DNA of 56,203 nucleotides from a virus (IMGVR_UViG_2778260992_000008:1-56203); one strand, 5' to 3'; shown: positions 2,537 through 33,051, counted from the first letter of the stretch. Program-made: numbers and translations. Notes: a model not told the origin generated them from the sequence alone.

Positions 2537-3958
2537 TTAAAAAGATGCGTTGTTCTGGCTGTTTCGTGTGGAGAATCGACTTGCCGCCGGACGTTGTTGC
2601 ATTGACTGAATGCAAGCGGACGCCGCGCGGGCCTGGTCGCATGGGATGATGTTGCCGTTATCGTCAAACCGCTGGTAAACAGTCCCCGTTTTCCCGTGAC
2701 GGTTTTTTGAAACGATGATCTCCATATATTCGCGGGCAACCGATTGTTCGTTGTAGTAGCCGTCGCGGTAGACCATGATGATCCGGTCTGCGTCCTGTTC
2801 AAGATTACCGGAATCACGCAGATCAGAATTGTTCGGGCGCTTGTTCGGTCGTTCCTCAACGCGGCGGGATAATTGCGCCAGCGCCGCCACTGGCACGCGC
2901 AACTCTTTCGCCATCATTTTCAATGACCACGACAATTGCCCTACGGCGAGATCATGACGTTCGGCCTTAGCCAGCTTCATTAACCCGATGTAGTCAATCA
3001 TTACCATCCCCAGGTTAGGATGGTCCTGTTTCATCCGTTCGACGGTGGCGCGTATTTCCTCGACCGTTAACTGCGATGCGTCAACAATCCACACATCGAG
3101 ATCGGCAAGGGCACTCATTCCCTGGGCGACGTGCGCCCAACCTTCGTCATCCAGTTTTACCGGATTACGTAGGCAATCCGTTGATAAGTTCCCAGCGCCA
3201 GCGATAGCACGTTCAGTCATCTGATCGAGCGACATTTCAAGCGTGAACAGCAAAACGCCGACCCGTTGACCTTCGCCGCCAGGGTATGGACGTTCAGCCG
3301 CCGCGCGGGCAATTGCCAACGCTAACGCCGATTTACCAGACCCTGGGCGTCCGGCGATAAGCACCAGATCAGTAGCGTTAATGCCGCCTAACATTTCGTC
3401 GAGTGGTTCGATCCCTGTTTTGATGTTGTCAGAATTAACACCACATTCCATACGTTTGCTTAAGACTTCCGTATATTCCTGTACCGCGTCGCGCAACAGC
3501 ACCGGAATAATCTTGTCTTTCGTTGTCTTTAATTTTGAATAGCGGGAATCAAAATATTTCATCGTCTCCCTGACGGCTTCGAGCGTCCCGGTCTCCAGGT
3601 TGTAGCGGATATCGTCTATCAGTTCCAACATTTGCCGCCGCTGATATTCCTCCTGCAATAGAGCTGCGTACCCCTTAAGGTTGGCAGCAGATGGACACGA
3701 TCGCGCCGTTTGCATTAGCGGGACAAAATTTTCGTTACCGATTTCATCACCGACCATCAGCGCGTCAATAAGGTTTCTGTTTCTGGCTTGCGCCCGGATT
3801 ATCTCAAACGCTCGTTTATATAGTGGAATGGTGAAGACTTCAGGATCGAGCGTAGCAAGAACATCTTGCGCGTTAGGAGTAAGACCGCCCAACAGGAGGC
3901 CACCTATCACAGCCGCCTCCCGTTCCTGGCGTAATGAGTTTATTTGCTCAGTCACCAT
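2537..3958 (-). CDS. replicative DNA helicase, DnaB family
   Basis: 473 aa; Walker A GRPGSGKSALALAIA, DnaB-like N-terminal domain and RecA-like core motifs. Confidence 0.9.
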   Translation of the reverse strand: MVTEQINSLRQEREAAVIGGLLLGGLTPNAQDVLATLDPEVFTIPLYKRAFEIIRAQARNRNLIDALMVGDEIGNENFVPLMQTARSCPSAANLKGYAALLQEEYQRRQMLELIDDIRYNLETGTLEAVRETMKYFDSRYSKLKTTKDKIIPVLLRDAVQEYTEVLSKRMECGVNSDNIKTGIEPLDEMLGGINATDLVLIAGRPGSGKSALALAIARAAAERPYPGGEGQRVGVLLFTLEMSLDQMTERAIAGAGNLSTDCLRNPVKLDDEGWAHVAQGMSALADLDVWIVDASQLTVEEIRATVERMKQDHPNLGMVMIDYIGLMKLAKAERHDLAVGQLSWSLKMMAKELRVPVAALAQLSRRVEERPNKRPNNSDLRDSGNLEQDADRIIMVYRDGYYNEQSVAREYMEIIVSKNRHGKTGTVYQRFDDNGNIIPCDQARAASACIQSMQQRPAASRFSTRNSQNNASF

Positions 3959-7975: not shown

Positions 7976-8623
7976 ATGAAAACAAAATGGTATGACTTAG
8001 CAAAACAACTCATGCGGGCGCAAGGTATGAGCCAGGATTCATTGGCGGACCTGATGGGGATCACGAAAGGCGGCTTATCGCACTGGCTGAACGGTCGCCG
8101 TGAGCCAAATCTTAATGATATTGCGCGGATCATGCGGGCGCTTGGTCGTCGGCAGTTTACGGTCACACATGATGGGATGGTTATTGATGATTCACTTTCT
8201 AATACACTGCCGGGAGCGCCACCGCTCGACGTAGGGCGTTATCCGGTGATTGACTGGAAAGACGCAGGAAACTACATGGAAGAAGCAAAACGCGCATCAT
8301 TACCGCACGTTAACACTAGCGTGATTTGTTCGGATGATAGTTATTGGCTGGTTGCAAAAGGTGAATCGATGAACGCGCCGCAAGGATTGAGCATCCCGGC
8401 GGGAACGATGATACTTGTTGATCCACACGCGCCAGCTATTGACGGCAAACTGGTTATAGCCCAATTGGAGGAAGGGCAAACGCCGACGTTTAAACAGTTG
8501 ATTATTGATGGAGGTCAAAGGCTTTTACGCTCGCTTAATCCGTTGTATCCACCAATCCCGCTAAATCCTGAATCAAAAATTATTGGCGTGGTGGTGGACG
8601 CGAAGATCGTAAACCTGCCATAA
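7976..8623 (+). CDS. cI-like repressor, HTH plus S24 LexA-type peptidase domain
   Basis: N-terminal HTH (SQDSLADLMGITKGGLSHWLNGRR); C-terminal GESM Ser and FKQL Lys dyad; divergent from replication genes. Confidence 0.85.
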   Translation: MKTKWYDLAKQLMRAQGMSQDSLADLMGITKGGLSHWLNGRREPNLNDIARIMRALGRRQFTVTHDGMVIDDSLSNTLPGAPPLDVGRYPVIDWKDAGNYMEEAKRASLPHVNTSVICSDDSYWLVAKGESMNAPQGLSIPAGTMILVDPHAPAIDGKLVIAQLEEGQTPTFKQLIIDGGQRLLRSLNPLYPPIPLNPESKIIGVVVDAKIVNLP

Positions 8624-13699: not shown

Positions 13700-13892
13700 A
13701 CATTACAGAGAATGGAAAATTCCAGAAGCAGCAACAAAGGCCGCACCTGGTAATTTTTCGGGCGTTTATTTTTATATGGATGGCAAATGGTATTTCGGCA
13801 GCAGGCCGGATCACTATTATCAAGAAATGTGTAAGCCTCACGTATGGGATATTAAAGAACGCGTGAAAGGCGGGGTAATTGAGGACGTTTAA
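13689..13892 (+). CDS. hypothetical protein
   Basis: 67-aa ORF, overlapping tandem arrangement. Confidence 0.4.
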   Translation: MRFKHYREWKIPEAATKAAPGNFSGVYFYMDGKWYFGSRPDHYYQEMCKPHVWDIKERVKGGVIEDV

Positions 13893-14114
13893 ATGTTAAG
13901 AGAAGTGTTTCACTTTTTTGGGGCGTGGCTTTTAGCCGCGCTTTTATTTTTCCTGGCGTGCGCCGTTGTTATTGCCGTCCTGATCGTCGGCGCAATGTTT
14001 ATCACATGGTCGCTTCCTGATGTTCAGTCGTGGGCGGAATTGCTTTTGGGTATACGCGTGCTATTCGCTTTTAGTGTTTTCGTGGGTTTTTTCTGGGTGG
14101 CCTCGACTTATTGA
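13893..14114 (+). CDS. small integral membrane protein
   Basis: 73 aa with two long hydrophobic segments. Confidence 0.45.
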   Translation: MLREVFHFFGAWLLAALLFFLACAVVIAVLIVGAMFITWSLPDVQSWAELLLGIRVLFAFSVFVGFFWVASTY

Positions 14115-14133
14115 GATGATCCGTGGTGATTAT

Positions 14134-14367
14134 ATGGCTTTATTCAACCTGTCAGAGCCGCAATTCAACGCCGTAAAAACTGCCGCACGCGCGGCGCTTT
14201 CTGCCTGCAAAGCAGAGGTAGAAAGAAACGGATATAGCGATAAAGCCACGCGGCTGATATTAGATAAGCATTATCGCAAGGTCGCCCCGCTAATCAGTAT
14301 TGAGCGTTTTGTGTGGTTGGTGGGATATCTGAATAACCGCTGGGGAGCAGATCAGGATTATTTCTAA
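14134..14367 (+). CDS. hypothetical protein
   Basis: ATG 14134 with RBS GGTGA (alternative ATG 14116); inside track ORF 14020-14367. Confidence 0.4.
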   Translation: MALFNLSEPQFNAVKTAARAALSACKAEVERNGYSDKATRLILDKHYRKVAPLISIERFVWLVGYLNNRWGADQDYF

Positions 14368-24925: not shown

Positions 24926-25126
24926 ATGTTCGACAAAATACGGGAGGCGTGCGCGTATGTGACCGGGGCCGTAACTGCTTTTTTCGGCGCGATAACCATC
25001 AATGACGTTGCCGTCTTTGTGGGTATCTTATCAACCATAGGCACATTTGCCGTTAATTATTACTTCAAATCACAGGAGAACAAGCGAGCGCAAGAGGAAC
25101 ACGACGCGCGAATGGGGAATAAGTAA
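24926..25126 (+). CDS. holin (66 aa)
   Basis: RBS GGAGG; two hydrophobic helices and charged C-terminus; directly precedes endolysin. Confidence 0.5.
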
Positions 25127-25127
25127 C

Positions 25128-25619
25128 ATGATTAGCCAATCGCTGAAGAATAAAATTATTGCTGCGGCGGCTGGTGGGGCGATCGCTATTGCGGCGGTGA
25201 TGGTTAAACCATTAGAGGGCGTGGAGTACGATCCCTATCGTGATGTTATCGGTGTATGGACCGTTTGTTATGGTCACACCGGAAAAGACATCATGCTGGG
25301 TAAGACTTACACGCAATCAGAATGCGATGCTTTGTTAAACAAAGATCTCCACAAAACCGCAAAAGCGATTGACCCATATATTAAAGTCGAAATATCAGAT
25401 TTTACCCGCGCGGCGCTTTATTCATTCGCCTATAACGTAGGCGCTACCAACTTCAAAACATCAACCTTATTAAAACTACTCAACGATGGCAAGAAATCCG
25501 AAGCGTGCGCCCAGCTTAAACGCTGGATATATGCTGGTGGTCAAAAATGGCAAGGTTTAATCAACCGCCGTGATGTTGAATATGCCGTTTGTGAATGGGG
25601 GGAAACGTGGACAAGATAA
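25128..25619 (+). CDS. SAR endolysin, T4-type lysozyme family
   Basis: N-terminal signal-arrest-release helix [17 protein letters not shown] followed by [23 protein letters not shown] catalytic region. Confidence 0.75.
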
Positions 25620-26077
25620 AGGCGTTAATCATCGCCGTGATTGTTTGCATTGTTGCCGGACTCACCGCCGCGCTTTGTTACTACCAGTCAACCATAAACA
25701 CGCTACAGACTGAACTAACGACAACTCAAGGCGCATTAAAAACGGCAAGTAACACTATCCAGCAAATGAAGGATCGAAACGCCGAACTGTCAAAACTTGA
25801 TAAGAGGTATCACGATGAAATTAAAGCTATCAGGTCCGATATTGCCGATCTGCGCAGCGGTATTGATAGCGGCGCTATCAGGTTGCACGTCAACGCAATA
25901 CCCGTGCGAGTGCCCGACACCACCGGAACCGCCAGCAGCATTGATGGAGCCGCCTGTAGACTCACTTCCGACGCTGAATCGGCTTATCTATCCCTCAGAG
26001 AACAACTAAAAGAGAAAGACGCGAAGATTACCGGATTACAGAGCTACATCAAAACGCAGTGCTTACGCAAAGAATAA
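25595..26077 (+). CDS. i-spanin (Rz-like)
   Basis: N-terminal TM helix then coiled-coil periplasmic region; overlaps endolysin end (GTG at 25607 is an alternative start). Confidence 0.6.
25815..26009 (+). CDS. o-spanin (Rz1-like lipoprotein) nested in +1 frame of i-spanin
   Basis: Lipobox LSGC after signal [20 protein letters not shown]; Pro-rich mature part. Confidence 0.6.
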   Translation: MKLKLSGPILPICAAVLIAALSGCTSTQYPCECPTPPEPPAALMEPPVDSLPTLNRLIYPSENN

Positions 26078-26345
26078 CAGCGCGTGGACGTGTCGCCGTT
26101 TCCGCCAGCCAGCCATAACCGGGTCAATCCTTCCCGCGAGCGACGGCGGAATAGTCAAAAACACGTAATGCCGGATCATCCATCCCATTAACAGGTCGGC
26201 GCTACCTGGGCAGAAGAAAGTGCCATTCACCAATTTTATAAAATTCTGGAAACGGTACTGATGAAGCGCCGTTTTCAGTGTTTTATGTCATTCCTGCCGC
26301 TGTATAAACAGGAAGTAAAAGTAAACCAGACAGGAGATTATTCTG

Positions 26346-26888
26346 ATGGCTAAGGGTAAAGGCTTGAAATTGCCTCATTTCAAAGTACCGCTCTTTGAGC
26401 ATACAACAGTCTTCTTTTGCCCGACCCGCGAAATCTTCTATGAATTTTGCGAGCGTGCACATATTCCAATCGAACCTGATTTCGAACTGGCTGGCGGCCT
26501 GACTTTAACCTGTACAGGTGAGAACGGCGGCAATTTCTATGTTGTAGCTGTATTCGATCATGAGATGGGTACGCTAGTTCATGAATGCGCCCATAGTACA
26601 TTCCATGTATTAAGTGACGTGGGCGTACTGGCGACCACTGACGCAACTCATCCGGCGAATGAAACCTACGCCTACATGATTGGGCGCATGTTTGACACTT
26701 TCTTCCCGATCCTGGCTGAATCAAACGAAGCGGAAGTGGCAGCACAACAGGCGGCGGAAGTGGTAGAGCAAGCGTTAGAACAGGCAGAACAGCCGAAGGA
26801 AGAAGAAAAACCCGCGAAGAAAGGGAAACGTAAGCCGAAGGCAAAAGAAGCGCTTGTACCGCGCGTAATGAGCTTTAGACGGGGGTGA
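26346..26888 (+). CDS. hypothetical protein with HExxH motif and Lys/Glu-rich tail
   Basis: RBS CAGGAG; LVHECAHSTFH; C-terminus EEKPAKKGKRKPKAKE. Confidence 0.45.
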   Translation: MAKGKGLKLPHFKVPLFEHTTVFFCPTREIFYEFCERAHIPIEPDFELAGGLTLTCTGENGGNFYVVAVFDHEMGTLVHECAHSTFHVLSDVGVLATTDATHPANETYAYMIGRMFDTFFPILAESNEAEVAAQQAAEVVEQALEQAEQPKEEEKPAKKGKRKPKAKEALVPRVMSFRRG

Positions 26889-26890
26889 TC

Positions 26891-26962
26891 ATGGGCGACT
26901 TTCTGTTACTAATAGTTTTGTTATTTACTGGCCTTGCATTGCTCGATGTTATAACGAGGTAA
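26891..26962 (+). CDS. mini-ORF 1 of 7, single-helix hydrophobic peptide (23 aa)
   Basis: MGDFLLLIVLLFTGLALLDVITR; RBS GGGGGTGA. Confidence 0.35.
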   Translation: MGDFLLLIVLLFTGLALLDVITR

Positions 26963-26965
26963 CAT

Positions 26966-27061
26966 ATGGATGAGTGCATCATTGCCGGATTAATCGGAAT
27001 ATCTGTATTTCTGGTGGGCTTTGTTATTGCCGTGCTGATAACAGTAAAGAGTAAATTATGA
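26966..27061 (+). CDS. mini-ORF 2 of 7, hydrophobic peptide (31 aa)
   Basis: MDECIIAGLIGISVFLVGFVIAVLITVKSKL; RBS GAGGTAA. Confidence 0.35.
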   Translation: MDECIIAGLIGISVFLVGFVIAVLITVKSKL

Positions 27062-27132
27062 ACGCTTACGATCTCATCTGGTTGTTGGTGCTCATCGTAG
27101 GTATTGGCGTGAATATCTATAGATTATGGTGA
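27058..27132 (+). CDS. mini-ORF 3 of 7, hydrophobic peptide (24 aa)
   Basis: MNAYDLIWLLVLIVGIGVNIYRLW; ATGA overlap with mini-ORF 2. Confidence 0.35.
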   Translation: MNAYDLIWLLVLIVGIGVNIYRLW

Positions 27133-27136
27133 CGCA

Positions 27137-27211
27137 ATGGAGTTTTACGAAATTATAGCATGTGTAGCCTTTGCCTTTGTCCTGTATTTCTGGTGGAAGA
27201 ATGTTGTATAG
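27137..27211 (+). CDS. mini-ORF 4 of 7, hydrophobic peptide (24 aa)
   Basis: MEFYEIIACVAFAFVLYFWWKNVV; RBS GGTGA. Confidence 0.35.
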   Translation: MEFYEIIACVAFAFVLYFWWKNVV

Positions 27212-27219
27212 GTGAAAGC

Positions 27220-27300
27220 ATGAACGCATACGAAATGCTATTGCTGGTGGCTGTTATTGCAGTTATTGCCGTTGATTTTTATCGAGGGTTAAAAAGATGA
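27220..27300 (+). CDS. mini-ORF 5 of 7, hydrophobic peptide (26 aa)
   Basis: MNAYEMLLLVAVIAVIAVDFYRGLKR; RBS AGGTGA; paralog of mini-ORF 3. Confidence 0.35.
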   Translation: MNAYEMLLLVAVIAVIAVDFYRGLKR

Positions 27301-27365
27301 GAGAGTCAGATTTTATCTATATGGTTTTAGCTATTGTCTTTATCGCCCTGGCTTTCGCAATTTAG
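27297..27365 (+). CDS. mini-ORF 6 of 7, hydrophobic peptide (22 aa)
   Basis: MRESDFIYMVLAIVFIALAFAI; ATGA overlap with mini-ORF 5. Confidence 0.3.
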   Translation: MRESDFIYMVLAIVFIALAFAI

Positions 27366-27377
27366 CAGGAATAAGCA

Positions 27378-27461
27378 ATGAAAGAGCTATTCGACTGGTT
27401 GGAAGTATTAACATACTGCGCAAGTTTTGTAGCTTGCGTATATATCATCAATAGATATTGA
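27378..27461 (+). CDS. mini-ORF 7 of 7, hydrophobic peptide (27 aa)
   Basis: MKELFDWLEVLTYCASFVACVYIINRY; RBS AGGA. Confidence 0.35.
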   Translation: MKELFDWLEVLTYCASFVACVYIINRY

Positions 27462-27472
27462 GAGGTGACATT

Positions 27473-27958
27473 ATGGCCCGCACTAAAAAGGCAAAGGCTG
27501 ACGATAAAAAGCCAGCCGCTAAAAAGGTGGGCCGTCCGCATGGATATACCGAAGAGAAAGCATTAGAGATCTGCGAACTGGTAGCGGATGGTCAGAGTAT
27601 TAACAAAATATCGAAAATGCCTGGGATGCCGAACCGTTCAACGATTCTCAAATGGTTTCGGGACGTGCCGGAGTTTTCCACCATGTACGCGCGAGCAAAG
27701 GAAATAGGCTTTGAAGTATTGGCAGATGAAATCATCGATCTGGCTGATGCCGAAGTAAACACGGATAAAGACCAGTTGCGCCGCCATCAACTGATGATTG
27801 ATACCCGTAAATGGCTACTGGCAAAACTGCAACCGCGCAAATATGGTGAGCGCGTCACACAGGAGATCGTTGGTAACAAGGAGGAAGCGCCCGTCCAGAT
27901 TGAAGTCACGAAAGAAGAGATCGCCCGCATCGTCCAGGAAGTAGAAGATGAGGTGTGA
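27473..27958 (+). CDS. terminase small subunit
   Basis: RBS GAGAGGTGA; basic N-terminus with HTH (GQSINKISKMPGMPNRSTILKWF); directly upstream of large terminase. Confidence 0.6.
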   Translation: MARTKKAKADDKKPAAKKVGRPHGYTEEKALEICELVADGQSINKISKMPGMPNRSTILKWFRDVPEFSTMYARAKEIGFEVLADEIIDLADAEVNTDKDQLRRHQLMIDTRKWLLAKLQPRKYGERVTQEIVGNKEEAPVQIEVTKEEIARIVQEVEDEV

Positions 27959-30891: not shown

Positions 30892-31777
30892 CACCGAAGA
30901 CCCGACCATGACAGGTAAGTTACGGTCGGGGGCTGATAAGCGGTTTAAAGCGTGCTTAAAGAAAGTGGCGCAACCTTATATCGACATCCTGGACAAGATA
31001 CCCGCGCAAAAGTCACTGAATAAGAAATACACCTTTCAGATATACATGGATGAACTGCAAACATTGCTTGATGATGCTGGTCGAATGATTGATGAGATAT
31101 TCGAGCTATCTGATCCTGATTCATTCTGGTTTTGGCAAAACTATGTGAAGGCCGCTTATCAGCGCGGGACATCTCAAGAACACGCTAACCTGGCTAACCA
31201 GTCGGTCACATATGCCAGGGCTTATCCTGAAGTAGCGGACGTGTTAGCCAGTACACCTTATCGCACCAGGCTTGCACTGGTCCGCACCCGTGTCTTTGAA
31301 GAAATGCGCGGCCTCACTGCGCAGATCAAAAAGGATATGGCCCGCCGATTAACCGAAGGAATGGCCCGTGGTTTAAATCCGCTTGAAATAGCCCGCACGC
31401 TGGAGCAGGAAACAAAATTGCCGCTATACAGGTGCAAACGTATTGCCCGAACGGAAATATGCACAGCGTTGCGCACGGCGCGTATGGATGAGGCCGAAGC
31501 GGCGATAGAAGAATTCAATCTGCGCACTAAGCAATTGCATATTTCGGCATTATCACCAACAACCAGGCTATCACACGCGCGGCGGCACGGGAACACCTAC
31601 ACCATAGACGAGCAAAGGAAGTGGTGGAGTGAATCGCCCAACTCGATTAACTGCAAATGCACCACGATTACCGTATTGGTGGATGAAAACGGTAAGATAT
31701 TAAACAAACGAATCGAACAACGGGCGCAAGAAAATTACAAGGTGGCGCACGCTAAATATGGTAATGATTGGGAGTAA
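30881..31777 (+). CDS. head morphogenesis protein, Mu F / SPP1 gp7-like
   Basis: KRIARTEICTALRTARMDEA motif; ATG 30881 overlaps portal stop. Confidence 0.6.
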   Translation: MPNNTEDPTMTGKLRSGADKRFKACLKKVAQPYIDILDKIPAQKSLNKKYTFQIYMDELQTLLDDAGRMIDEIFELSDPDSFWFWQNYVKAAYQRGTSQEHANLANQSVTYARAYPEVADVLASTPYRTRLALVRTRVFEEMRGLTAQIKKDMARRLTEGMARGLNPLEIARTLEQETKLPLYRCKRIARTEICTALRTARMDEAEAAIEEFNLRTKQLHISALSPTTRLSHARRHGNTYTIDEQRKWWSESPNSINCKCTTITVLVDENGKILNKRIEQRAQENYKVAHAKYGNDWE

Positions 31778-33051
31778 AGACCGTGAATAAAGAATTAATT
31801 CAGGTTAATACCAAATTAACCGCTAATACCATCCGCCGGGAAACATACAACGGGCGGGAACATATTGTCGTCCCGTCCTACACATTACCCTTTAACATCG
31901 TTATGAATCGGGAATATTACCCGGAAGCTGAAATTATCGCTAATTACCAGTCACTGGAGGGCACACTCGCCCCGCTTGGTCATCCTACCGTAGACGGTAA
32001 ATTTGTTTCCGCATTTAGCCCGGAGGGATTAAACACGGGTTTTTGTGGAGCATGGAATAGAAACGTGGAATTACGCGGCAATCGTGTTTATGTGGAAAAA
32101 TGGGTGGACGTGGAAACCGCCAGCCATTCAGAGCAGGGCCGGGAATTATTAACCCGACTGGAAGCGCTGGAGAAAGGCGAAAGCAAGGATCCGATCTGGT
32201 CTTCCGTCGCTGTATATCGTCAACGTATGCCAGCTACTGAAGAGATGAAAGCCCAGGGTGCGGATCACGTAGTGAAAATTATGTCAATTGACCATGACGC
32301 TATTTTACTGCATGAACCGCCCGCCGCATCACCAGAGCAGGGCGTTGGCCTGATGGTTAACACCGACCAGGCGAAACCGTTAATGACGGTGGCGATGAAA
32401 GAAAATAGCTATCGCACCCTTGAAAAACAATTAACCGACGCGGCGCGGGAATTGTTCCCTGATGCCGATTATGTGTATGTGGTGGACTTCACTGATAAAG
32501 AAGTGACGATCGCTACTAATACTGAAAGTGCTCAAGTTTGCGCATATGAAAAACAGGCTGATAAAATTATTCTCAATAATGGCGAACTGCAAACTAACGA
32601 GGATTCCAAATCCTGGTTCGCTCAATTCGCTGAACATCTATCTGATTTATTCATCCTGAAAGAAAAAATCCAGGCCAATAAGAAAGAGGAAACCGACATG
32701 CCTTTGACCAAAGAAGAACGCGCCGATCTGGTAAAAGAAATTAACGAAGGTTTAGCCGCTAATATCGCTAATGCAGTAGCTGAAGCATTAAAACCAGTAC
32801 AGGCAAGCGTAGAAGAATTGCAGACCAACCAGAAAGCAATTAAAGAAGAAATTGCAGCAAACGCAGATAAAGAAGTCGAAGCAAAACGCGCCGCAGTAGC
32901 AAAAGTCCACGGCGAAATTGTTGCTAATGATTTGGGTCGTGAAGCATTAGAAGAAATGTTTAAAAACCTGGGCAAAGCCGCGCCGCTGGCAACCAATGCC
33001 GCCGAAGAAGGCAAAAAAGGCGAAGTGCCAGACTTTAACACTTATTTCTAA
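31768..33051 (+). CDS. capsid scaffolding protein (possibly with N-terminal protease-like domain)
   Basis: 427 aa; C-terminal half Ala/Glu/Lys-rich; positioned between MuF-like and capsid genes. Confidence 0.45.
   Translation: MGVKTVNKELIQVNTKLTANTIRRETYNGREHIVVPSYTLPFNIVMNREYYPEAEIIANYQSLEGTLAPLGHPTVDGKFVSAFSPEGLNTGFCGAWNRNVELRGNRVYVEKWVDVETASHSEQGRELLTRLEALEKGESKDPIWSSVAVYRQRMPATEEMKAQGADHVVKIMSIDHDAILLHEPPAASPEQGVGLMVNTDQAKPLMTVAMKENSYRTLEKQLTDAARELFPDADYVYVVDFTDKEVTIATNTESAQVCAYEKQADKIILNNGELQTNEDSKSWFAQFAEHLSDLFILKEKIQANKKEETDMPLTKEERADLVKEINEGLAANIANAVAEALKPVQASVEELQTNQKAIKEEIAANADKEVEAKRAAVAKVHGEIVANDLGREALEEMFKNLGKAAPLATNAAEEGKKGEVPDFNTYF

Follow-up and report, generated by a model that had tools for sequence, protein, structure and literature searches.

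The DNA analysed here, referred to as the window, is a viral stretch of 56,203 nucleotides belonging to the mEp021-like (mEpimmI) group of temperate, non-lambdoid E. coli siphophages, and across the gene region it is 85-89% identical to the DNA of MagusPhagus, mEp554, mEp044 and mEp021. Its late region comprises, in this order, a holin gene, a SAR-type endolysin gene, Rz with an embedded Rz1, a gene whose product contains a HExxH motif (hereafter the HExxH gene), seven tiny hydrophobic ORFs and the genes of the small terminase, the large terminase, the portal and a MuF-like protein. The coordinates are collected in Table 1. A first-pass annotation of the window had already reported a 180-aa HExxH protein with the stretch LVHECAHSTFH, encoded between the lysis genes and an array of small peptides, and the same ORF, the same translation (LVHECAHSTFH at residues 77-87) and the same position after the end of Rz and before the tiny ORFs were recovered here.

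Table 1. The HExxH gene, its parts and its surroundings (positions counted from the first letter of the window)
Feature	Position	Strand	Basis
Holin gene	24926-25126	+	
SAR-type endolysin gene	25128-25619	+	
Rz gene	25595-26077	+	
Rz1-type o-spanin ORF, +1 frame in Rz	25815-26009	+	lipobox LSGC, Pro-rich mature part
Terminator-like hairpin, then a short T-run (26281-26284)	26246-26278	+	RNA fold
Ribosome-binding site AGGAG, 9 nt 5' of ATG	26332-26336	+	read from sequence
HExxH gene, 180 codons and stop	26346-26888	+	ORF, ribosome-binding site, purifying selection, PHROG 1365 match
Predicted catalytic domain, residues 1-123	26346-26714	+	AlphaFold2 model, family alignment, dN/dS 0.06-0.12
HECAH (H79, E80, H83), two predicted zinc ligands and general base	26580-26594	+	invariant; helix 74-91
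NETYAY (N105, E106...Y110), predicted third zinc ligand and conserved aromatic	26658-26675	+	alignment
Acidic Ala/Glu/Gln-rich helical spacer, residues 124-154, net charge -9	26715-26807	+	charge; model helix 103-148
Conserved basic C-terminal peptide KPAKKGKRKPKAKEALVPRVMSFRRG, residues 155-180, net charge +10	26808-26885	+	dN/dS
Seven tiny hydrophobic ORFs	26891-27461	+	
Gene of a 427-aa PHROG 760 protein	31768-33051	+	

The HExxH gene is the counterpart of mEp021 gp49, which is annotated as 'hypothetical protein'. Codon analysis against four relatives gave a dN/dS of 0.06-0.12 for the domain, and the ORF is real and under strong purifying selection. An overlapping ORF on the minus strand (26380..26844) was dismissed as a shadow of the HExxH gene, since it is the plus frame that is real and constrained. 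No hydrophobic segment, signal peptide or membrane segment was detected in the 180-aa protein (maximum KD19 0.84).

The terminator-like hairpin separates the lysis cassette from the HExxH gene. Folding of positions 26240-26292 gave -19.5 kcal/mol with z = -4.8, none of the 200 shuffled sequences being as stable, and in mEp021 a terminator (TERM_6) is annotated at the equivalent site, ~80 nt before gp49. Neither a sigma-70-like promoter nor an RNA family of Rfam was found in 25500-27600. The presence of such a hairpin ahead of the gene suggests that the HExxH gene is probably reached by antiterminated late transcription.

Some features of the adjacent genes were also noted. The holin gene is short and precedes the endolysin gene, and two TM segments are annotated in the mEp021 holin. 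The endolysin has an N-terminal, Gly/Ala-rich and weakly hydrophobic segment, typical of signal-anchor-release (SAR) endolysins, and the combination of a SAR-like endolysin with a two-TM holin suggests a pinholin/SAR lysis system. On the other side of the HExxH gene, the seven tiny ORFs stand in a row, encode peptides of 22-31 aa that each amount to about one hydrophobic helix, and are preceded in several cases by GAGG/GGTG-like sites. The first of them overlaps the stop codon of the HExxH gene and two are clear paralogues (MNAYDLIWLL... and MNAYEMLLLV...). Their equivalents are listed as hypothetical proteins in MagusPhagus, and none is annotated in mEp021.

The window has 216 ORFs of 60 aa or more, and HECAH is the only HExxH motif among them. 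Given the composition, one expects ~0.2 occurrences per 12,500 coding residues and 0.003 per 180-aa protein, and a single HExxH motif alone is weak evidence. To collect relatives, HMMER was run exhaustively over 1.84 billion cluster representatives (E<=1e-3); it returned 137 representatives, nearly all of them stand-alone proteins of 87-190 aa (about 110-130 residues), and 118 sequences from these representatives, 21-61% identical to the query, were aligned over the domain region only. A second, word-indexed protein search with the family profile gave almost only the same close E. coli relatives and added one distant member. Of the 137 representatives, 134 have the motif; the remaining three comprise one variant with HKAAH in its place and two sequences that are truncated or carry a frameshift. 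Residues G51, H79, E80, H83 and E106 never vary in the 118-sequence alignment, Y110 reaches at least 90% conservation and no further invariant His was found; of 123 family members, 110 place the Glu 23-24 residues after H79. It is the invariance of these five residues among relatives of such low identity to the query that gives the HExxH motif its meaning, and the alignment points to G...TLxHExxH...NExxxY as the predicted signature of the family.

An AlphaFold2 model computed with the family alignment has a mean pLDDT of 91 and a pTM of 0.78. It consists of strand 11-13, strand 21-25, helix 28-37, helix 44-48, strands 51-57 and 63-69, helix 74-91, which carries HExxH, and a long helix 103-148, which begins with N105-E106. 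As modelled, this order of elements is that of a minimal zincin with Glu as putative third ligand, that is, of the gluzincin type, and it is from sequence and secondary structure that we infer the geometry of the metal site. The MPTase core as described by Iyer et al. 2017 (PMC5512222), with a three-stranded sheet, an N-terminal helix, a HExxH helix and a Glu helix, fits the model and was counted in favour of the zincin assignment. A metzincin was rejected, the third His and the Met-turn signature being absent and the conserved third ligand being a predicted Glu. Among the predicted viral structures of BFVD, the model has 28 matches at E<1e-3, all of them small proteins of very different phages, a few of which are labelled SprT-like or metalloprotease. 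Foldseek comparison of the model with the PDB gave nothing significant; the best match, a JAMM protease (E 0.02, TM 0.26), was judged unrelated.

Comparison with catalogued families placed residues 8-131 of the protein on PHROG 1365 (function not assigned; positions 10-124 of the 127 of the profile, E 5e-27, 95 bits). No model of Pfam, NCBIfam or PADLOC matches the protein, and a score of 10.6 bits with an aKG-HExxH hydroxylase model in the curated-model scans is meaningless. One public record labels a 60%-identical homologue as 'PolyVal Metallopeptidase superfamily domain'. A PDB sequence search with the single protein returned noise only, and with the family profile it returned sub-significant matches only, to myroilysin, astacins and the virion RNA polymerase (vRNAP) of phage N4, of which residues 2192-2234 were weakly touched. 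N4 vRNAP contains a HExxH domain, placed at residues 2130-2448 by Iyer et al. 2017 (PMC5512222) and corresponding to subdomain C1, with no function assigned, in cryo-EM work of 2026 (PMC13434306).

This domain of N4 gp50 (residues ~2124-2448) was compared with the family by hhalign. The result was 71% for the single N4 segment and 92.4%, with E 5.2e-7 over 87 columns, for an alignment of eleven N4-type vRNAP domains assembled from tblastn hits, while a related-loci search with the N4 domain recovered only N4. The aligned part covers the N-terminal subdomain (sheet and backing helix) and the HExxH helix; the Glu helix of the query is paired with another helix of the template, owing to a long insert of the N4 domain at this site. 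Common to the N4-type domain and the query family are an invariant Gly before the strands, TLxHExxH and N-E-x-x-x-aromatic, the last reading NETYAY in the query and NEFMAW in N4, with N180, E181 and W185 conserved in the N4-type alignment. The N4 domain, on the other hand, belongs to a virion protein of 3,500 residues and is interrupted by ~75 inserted residues between the two catalytic helices, whereas the query is a stand-alone product of 180 aa and is insert-free. The query is best described, as far as profiles can tell, as a solo, insert-free version of the zincin domain of N4-type virion polymerases.

The query also resembles MPTase-PolyVal (PF18818), of which the C-terminal domain of R388 ArdC is an example. 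Both have a zincin core with HExxH and a downstream Glu, and a further likeness is that MPTase-PolyVal domains are found on mobile elements, often joined to a nucleic-acid-binding module. PF18818 did not match the query at E<=10 and does not figure in the list of the 25 families most often matched by the 118 members, and R388 ArdC (sequence taken from NC_028464.1), used as positive control, scores 165 bits with the same model. With hhalign, the family against R388 ArdC reached 11.6% over 30 columns around the motif. No membership in a large multidomain DNA-delivered protein was seen among the 137 representatives, which are single-domain and of at most 190 aa. The protein is best described, again from its sequence, as related to and yet outside the curated MPTase-PolyVal model. 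Also among the closest systems are the classical gluzincins (thermolysin M4, oligopeptidase M3, carboxypeptidase M32, collagenase M9) and the minimal 'minigluzincins' or Zincin_1 proteins such as PDB 3e11. The combination of a Peptidase_M78 match with an adjacent HTH repressor partner, which would mark the repressor-cleaving ImmA/IrrE (M78) proteases, was not found.

The first-pass annotation had read LVHECAHSTFH as a zinc-metallopeptidase-type motif, and had named conservation of the HExxH residues among homologues and a predicted metzincin or gluzincin fold as checks on this reading. The motif held up on both points, with the key residues invariant and a gluzincin-type rather than metzincin-type order of elements predicted, and the profile kinship with N4-type vRNAP adds to the zincin-like model. 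The same annotation had described a highly charged, Lys/Glu-rich tail. The C-terminus is charged as described, but it is made of two distinct parts, an acidic helix and a basic end, rather than one.

The acidic helix is variable, with a 14-residue insertion in mEp021 gp49 and total lengths of 172-194 aa in other relatives. In one relative, L010, its sequence is fully replaced (dN 0.89) while the final peptide is near-unchanged (dN 0.05). Compared with mEp021 and L010, the basic peptide has a dS of about 0.8-0.85 and a dN of about 0.05, so that it is kept as protein and not as DNA; a DNA-level signal behind the conservation of the tail is ruled out by these same values. The basic peptide is more conserved than the enzyme domain. 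A diverged and recognisable version of it, …YVPRIARYKRG, is present in a 52%-identical relative (P0121), and three unrelated family members (P0144, P0233 and P0237) have independently similar charged helices and basic ends of the type …KGKGVRRG or …GGRRGRR. The tail is absent from most family members, and when the 45-residue tail was used by itself as query, a 50-aa fragment was the only match. In the model, the tail has a pLDDT of 67-79 and is without regular structure. The arrangement would be that of a catalytic head, a rigid spacer and a basic anchor, the last perhaps latched onto the acidic helix when free.

The genomic neighbourhoods of the homologues were also compared. In mEp021-like phages, the HExxH gene always lies after the lysis cassette and before terS. 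In one of them, L008, it abuts terS with a 3-nt gap and the peptide array is missing, which excludes an obligatory partnership of the HExxH gene with the downstream array; the array is thus a variable insertion separating the two genes. The same L008 carries a gene with an ASCH/DUF3850 domain (3419-3685 of that locus) between Rz and the HExxH gene, suggesting that the interval from Rz to terS is a variable accessory slot in this phage group. In more distant phages, a homologue follows Rz in ST64T, L and epsilon34, overlaps the end of Rz in Serratia phage Eta, follows the lysozyme and a spanin-like gene in the Ralstonia T7-like phages RSB3 and Anchaing, and lies between the lysin and an i-spanin-like gene in Achromobacter phage Axy21. 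Homologues are found directly after lysis cassettes, or inside the cassette in one phage, in six phage lineages, and those beside lysis genes carry the full catalytic signature. Others are located away from lysis genes: P22 and HK620 have the homologue between sieA and mnt, Serratia phage Smarc3 has it behind the DNA polymerase, and G7C-like relatives of N4 have it at the right end of the genome. Since temperate as well as virulent phages carry its members, the family would serve the lytic cycle and not lysogeny. Nothing relevant was found in the literature on hkcC (the HK620 homologue), on SprT-like anti-defence phage proteins or on metalloproteases of lysis cassettes.

Some genomes deserve a comment of their own. 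The P22 reference (BK000583.1) contains, at ~13882-14193 on the plus strand between sieA and orf59a/mnt, an unannotated ORF of the family (~121 aa, HECAH ... NETYCY) that overlaps the annotated sieA promoter, and it is the HK620 equivalent of this ORF that is annotated as hkcC. The G7C-like relatives of N4, such as Bp4, have two copies of the zincin domain, a solo one at the right end, opposite to the late strand, and one fused in the vRNAP. The right-end genes of N4 itself, gp70 and gp71, are without a HExxH motif.

Taken together, the catalytic signature, the model and the profile comparisons make it reasonably probable that the gene encodes a soluble, stand-alone and minimal metallopeptidase of the predicted zincin type (HExxH...E, 'gluzincin'), kin of the domains fused into N4-type vRNAP and into other 'polyvalent' proteins of phages or plasmids. 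In such an enzyme, H79, H83 and E106 would hold one zinc ion, E80 would activate a water molecule as general base and Y110 would help to stabilise the transition state, with the substrate chain bound by strand 63-69, just before the active-site helix. The enzyme would be made late, via read-through from the Q-dependent late operon, and, as it has neither signal peptide nor membrane segment, it would act in the cytoplasm by cutting some host or phage protein. In the mEp021 group, the domain would be extended by the rigid acidic helix and the conserved basic 26-residue peptide; the latter may tether the protease to a polyanionic or conserved partner such as DNA or RNA, an inner-membrane lipid or a packaging protein, and may fold back on the acidic helix when unbound.

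In a first rival explanation, which we consider rather unlikely, the protein would be loaded into the capsid and co-injected, the basic peptide targeting it to packaged DNA or to the procapsid and the protease cleaving host defence proteins in the next host, as a single-domain counterpart of polyvalent proteins, of ArdC and of the C-terminal region of N4 vRNAP. The closest relative is indeed the HExxH domain of a protein that is packaged in the virion and ejected, and solo domains of polyvalent proteins beside late structural genes have been proposed to be probably capsid-deployed (Iyer et al., PMC5512222). The position of the gene, which abuts the small terminase gene with a gap of 3 nt in L008, and a tail more conserved than the enzyme also speak for co-injection. 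Mass spectrometry of the mEp021 virion, which was band-based and could have missed a low-copy protein, argues in the opposite direction, with 16 structural proteins and with gp49 remaining 'hypothetical' where gp41 is a 'virion structural protein'. Most family members are also without the tail, the homologues of P22-like phages are located in immI or behind the lysis genes, and no such protein is known among the virion proteins of P22.

The recurrent placement of the family in lysis regions brings a second explanation, a factor of lysis itself, which appears distinctly unlikely. Anchored by its tail at the cytoplasmic face of the inner membrane, the protease would act on the holin, the antiholin, a spanin or a host envelope protein and would tune or complete lysis. 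The broader proposal, suggested by six unrelated lineages in which the gene recurs immediately behind a lysis cassette or, in one phage, within it, is that the family is a previously unrecognised protease-type component of the lysis cassettes of Gram-negative phages, with the spacer setting the distance from the membrane, and it is held to be just as doubtful. The protein lacks a signal peptide and a membrane segment, and the window phage has a SAR-type endolysin and a two-TM holin; such pinholin systems are not known to release cytoplasmic proteins before lysis. Moreover, the homologues of P22, HK620, Smarc3 and the G7C-like phages are away from lysis genes, and accessory genes of unrelated kinds are also often found where a late operon ends.

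A DNA-dependent protease of the SprT/Spartan/Wss1 type (PF10263), whose tail would bind DNA and which would strip bound or cross-linked proteins from it before packaging, would be in keeping with the basic tail and with the position beside the terminase genes, and the query has in common with this group a small HExxH protease domain accompanied by a basic region. Weak PF10263 matches were obtained for 31 of the 118 members, the best with E 4e-4 and below threshold, and some BFVD neighbours are labelled SprT-like. These matches, however, are confined to a stretch of ~15 residues in the HExxH helix, at positions 63-78 of the 108 in the profile; the family consensus reaches 14 bits across 16 residues where the gathering score is 25.6 bits, and the Pfam scan gave no PF10263 match to the query itself. 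Against E. coli SprT, hhalign gave 4% with the motif not aligned. Because the PF10263 matches are sub-threshold and restricted to the motif helix and because of this low hhalign value, the query was not filed as SprT-like. The SprT-like family also has a His as third ligand, in contrast to the Glu predicted here in the absence of a conserved third His, and E. coli SprT has a Zn_ribbon_SprT domain, whereas the query is without zinc ribbon. A SprT-type function is consequently considered very improbable.

In a last explanation, the protein would be no enzyme, and the HExxH motif of what would be a small protein of structure or regulation would have arisen by chance or be a relic. One motif per phage genome is indeed not far from the chance expectation of 0.2, and no curated family matched, yet this explanation is hardly credible with all four catalytic positions invariant across sequences 21-61% identical to the query and with the fold and the profile relationship both pointing to zincins. 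A prohead maturation protease was rejected as well, since P22-like phages, which are not known to need head proteolysis, carry homologues and since the window has a separate scaffold-like gene, that of the PHROG 760 protein. The latter is encoded between the MuF-like gene and the decoration/capsid genes. Its N-terminal half is globular and its C-terminal half is a long coil rich in Ala, Glu and Lys, an organisation suggestive of a scaffold or of a scaffold fused to a protease.

With regard to the preferred reading of a soluble minimal zincin, what was already known is that the family is catalogued as PHROG 1365 and that one homologue is labelled metallopeptidase. The family is scattered across P22-like, mEp021-like, T7-like, N4-like and crAss-like phages and is called 'hypothetical' almost everywhere, including, by PGAP, all 13 copies in complete E. 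coli genomes. The catalytic signature, a confident fold model and the link to the HExxH domain of N4 vRNAP are new for it, and the recurrent neighbourhood of lysis genes and the conserved basic C-terminal peptide provide two leads. A domain of 120 residues that can be expressed alone would offer an easier route to the targets of phage zincins than the 3,500-residue N4 protein. Should the target be a host defence or envelope protein, the enzyme would be of practical interest; if not, it would be an ordinary accessory enzyme.

Finally, two features were observed in the late region of L010, a metagenomic relative. A gene for a HNH endonuclease (2752-3273 of that locus) is inserted between the endolysin gene and Rz, and the MuF-like head protein (635 aa) carries an intein-splicing domain (8491-8534). 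The HNH gene and the intein together suggest traffic of mobile elements in this late region.
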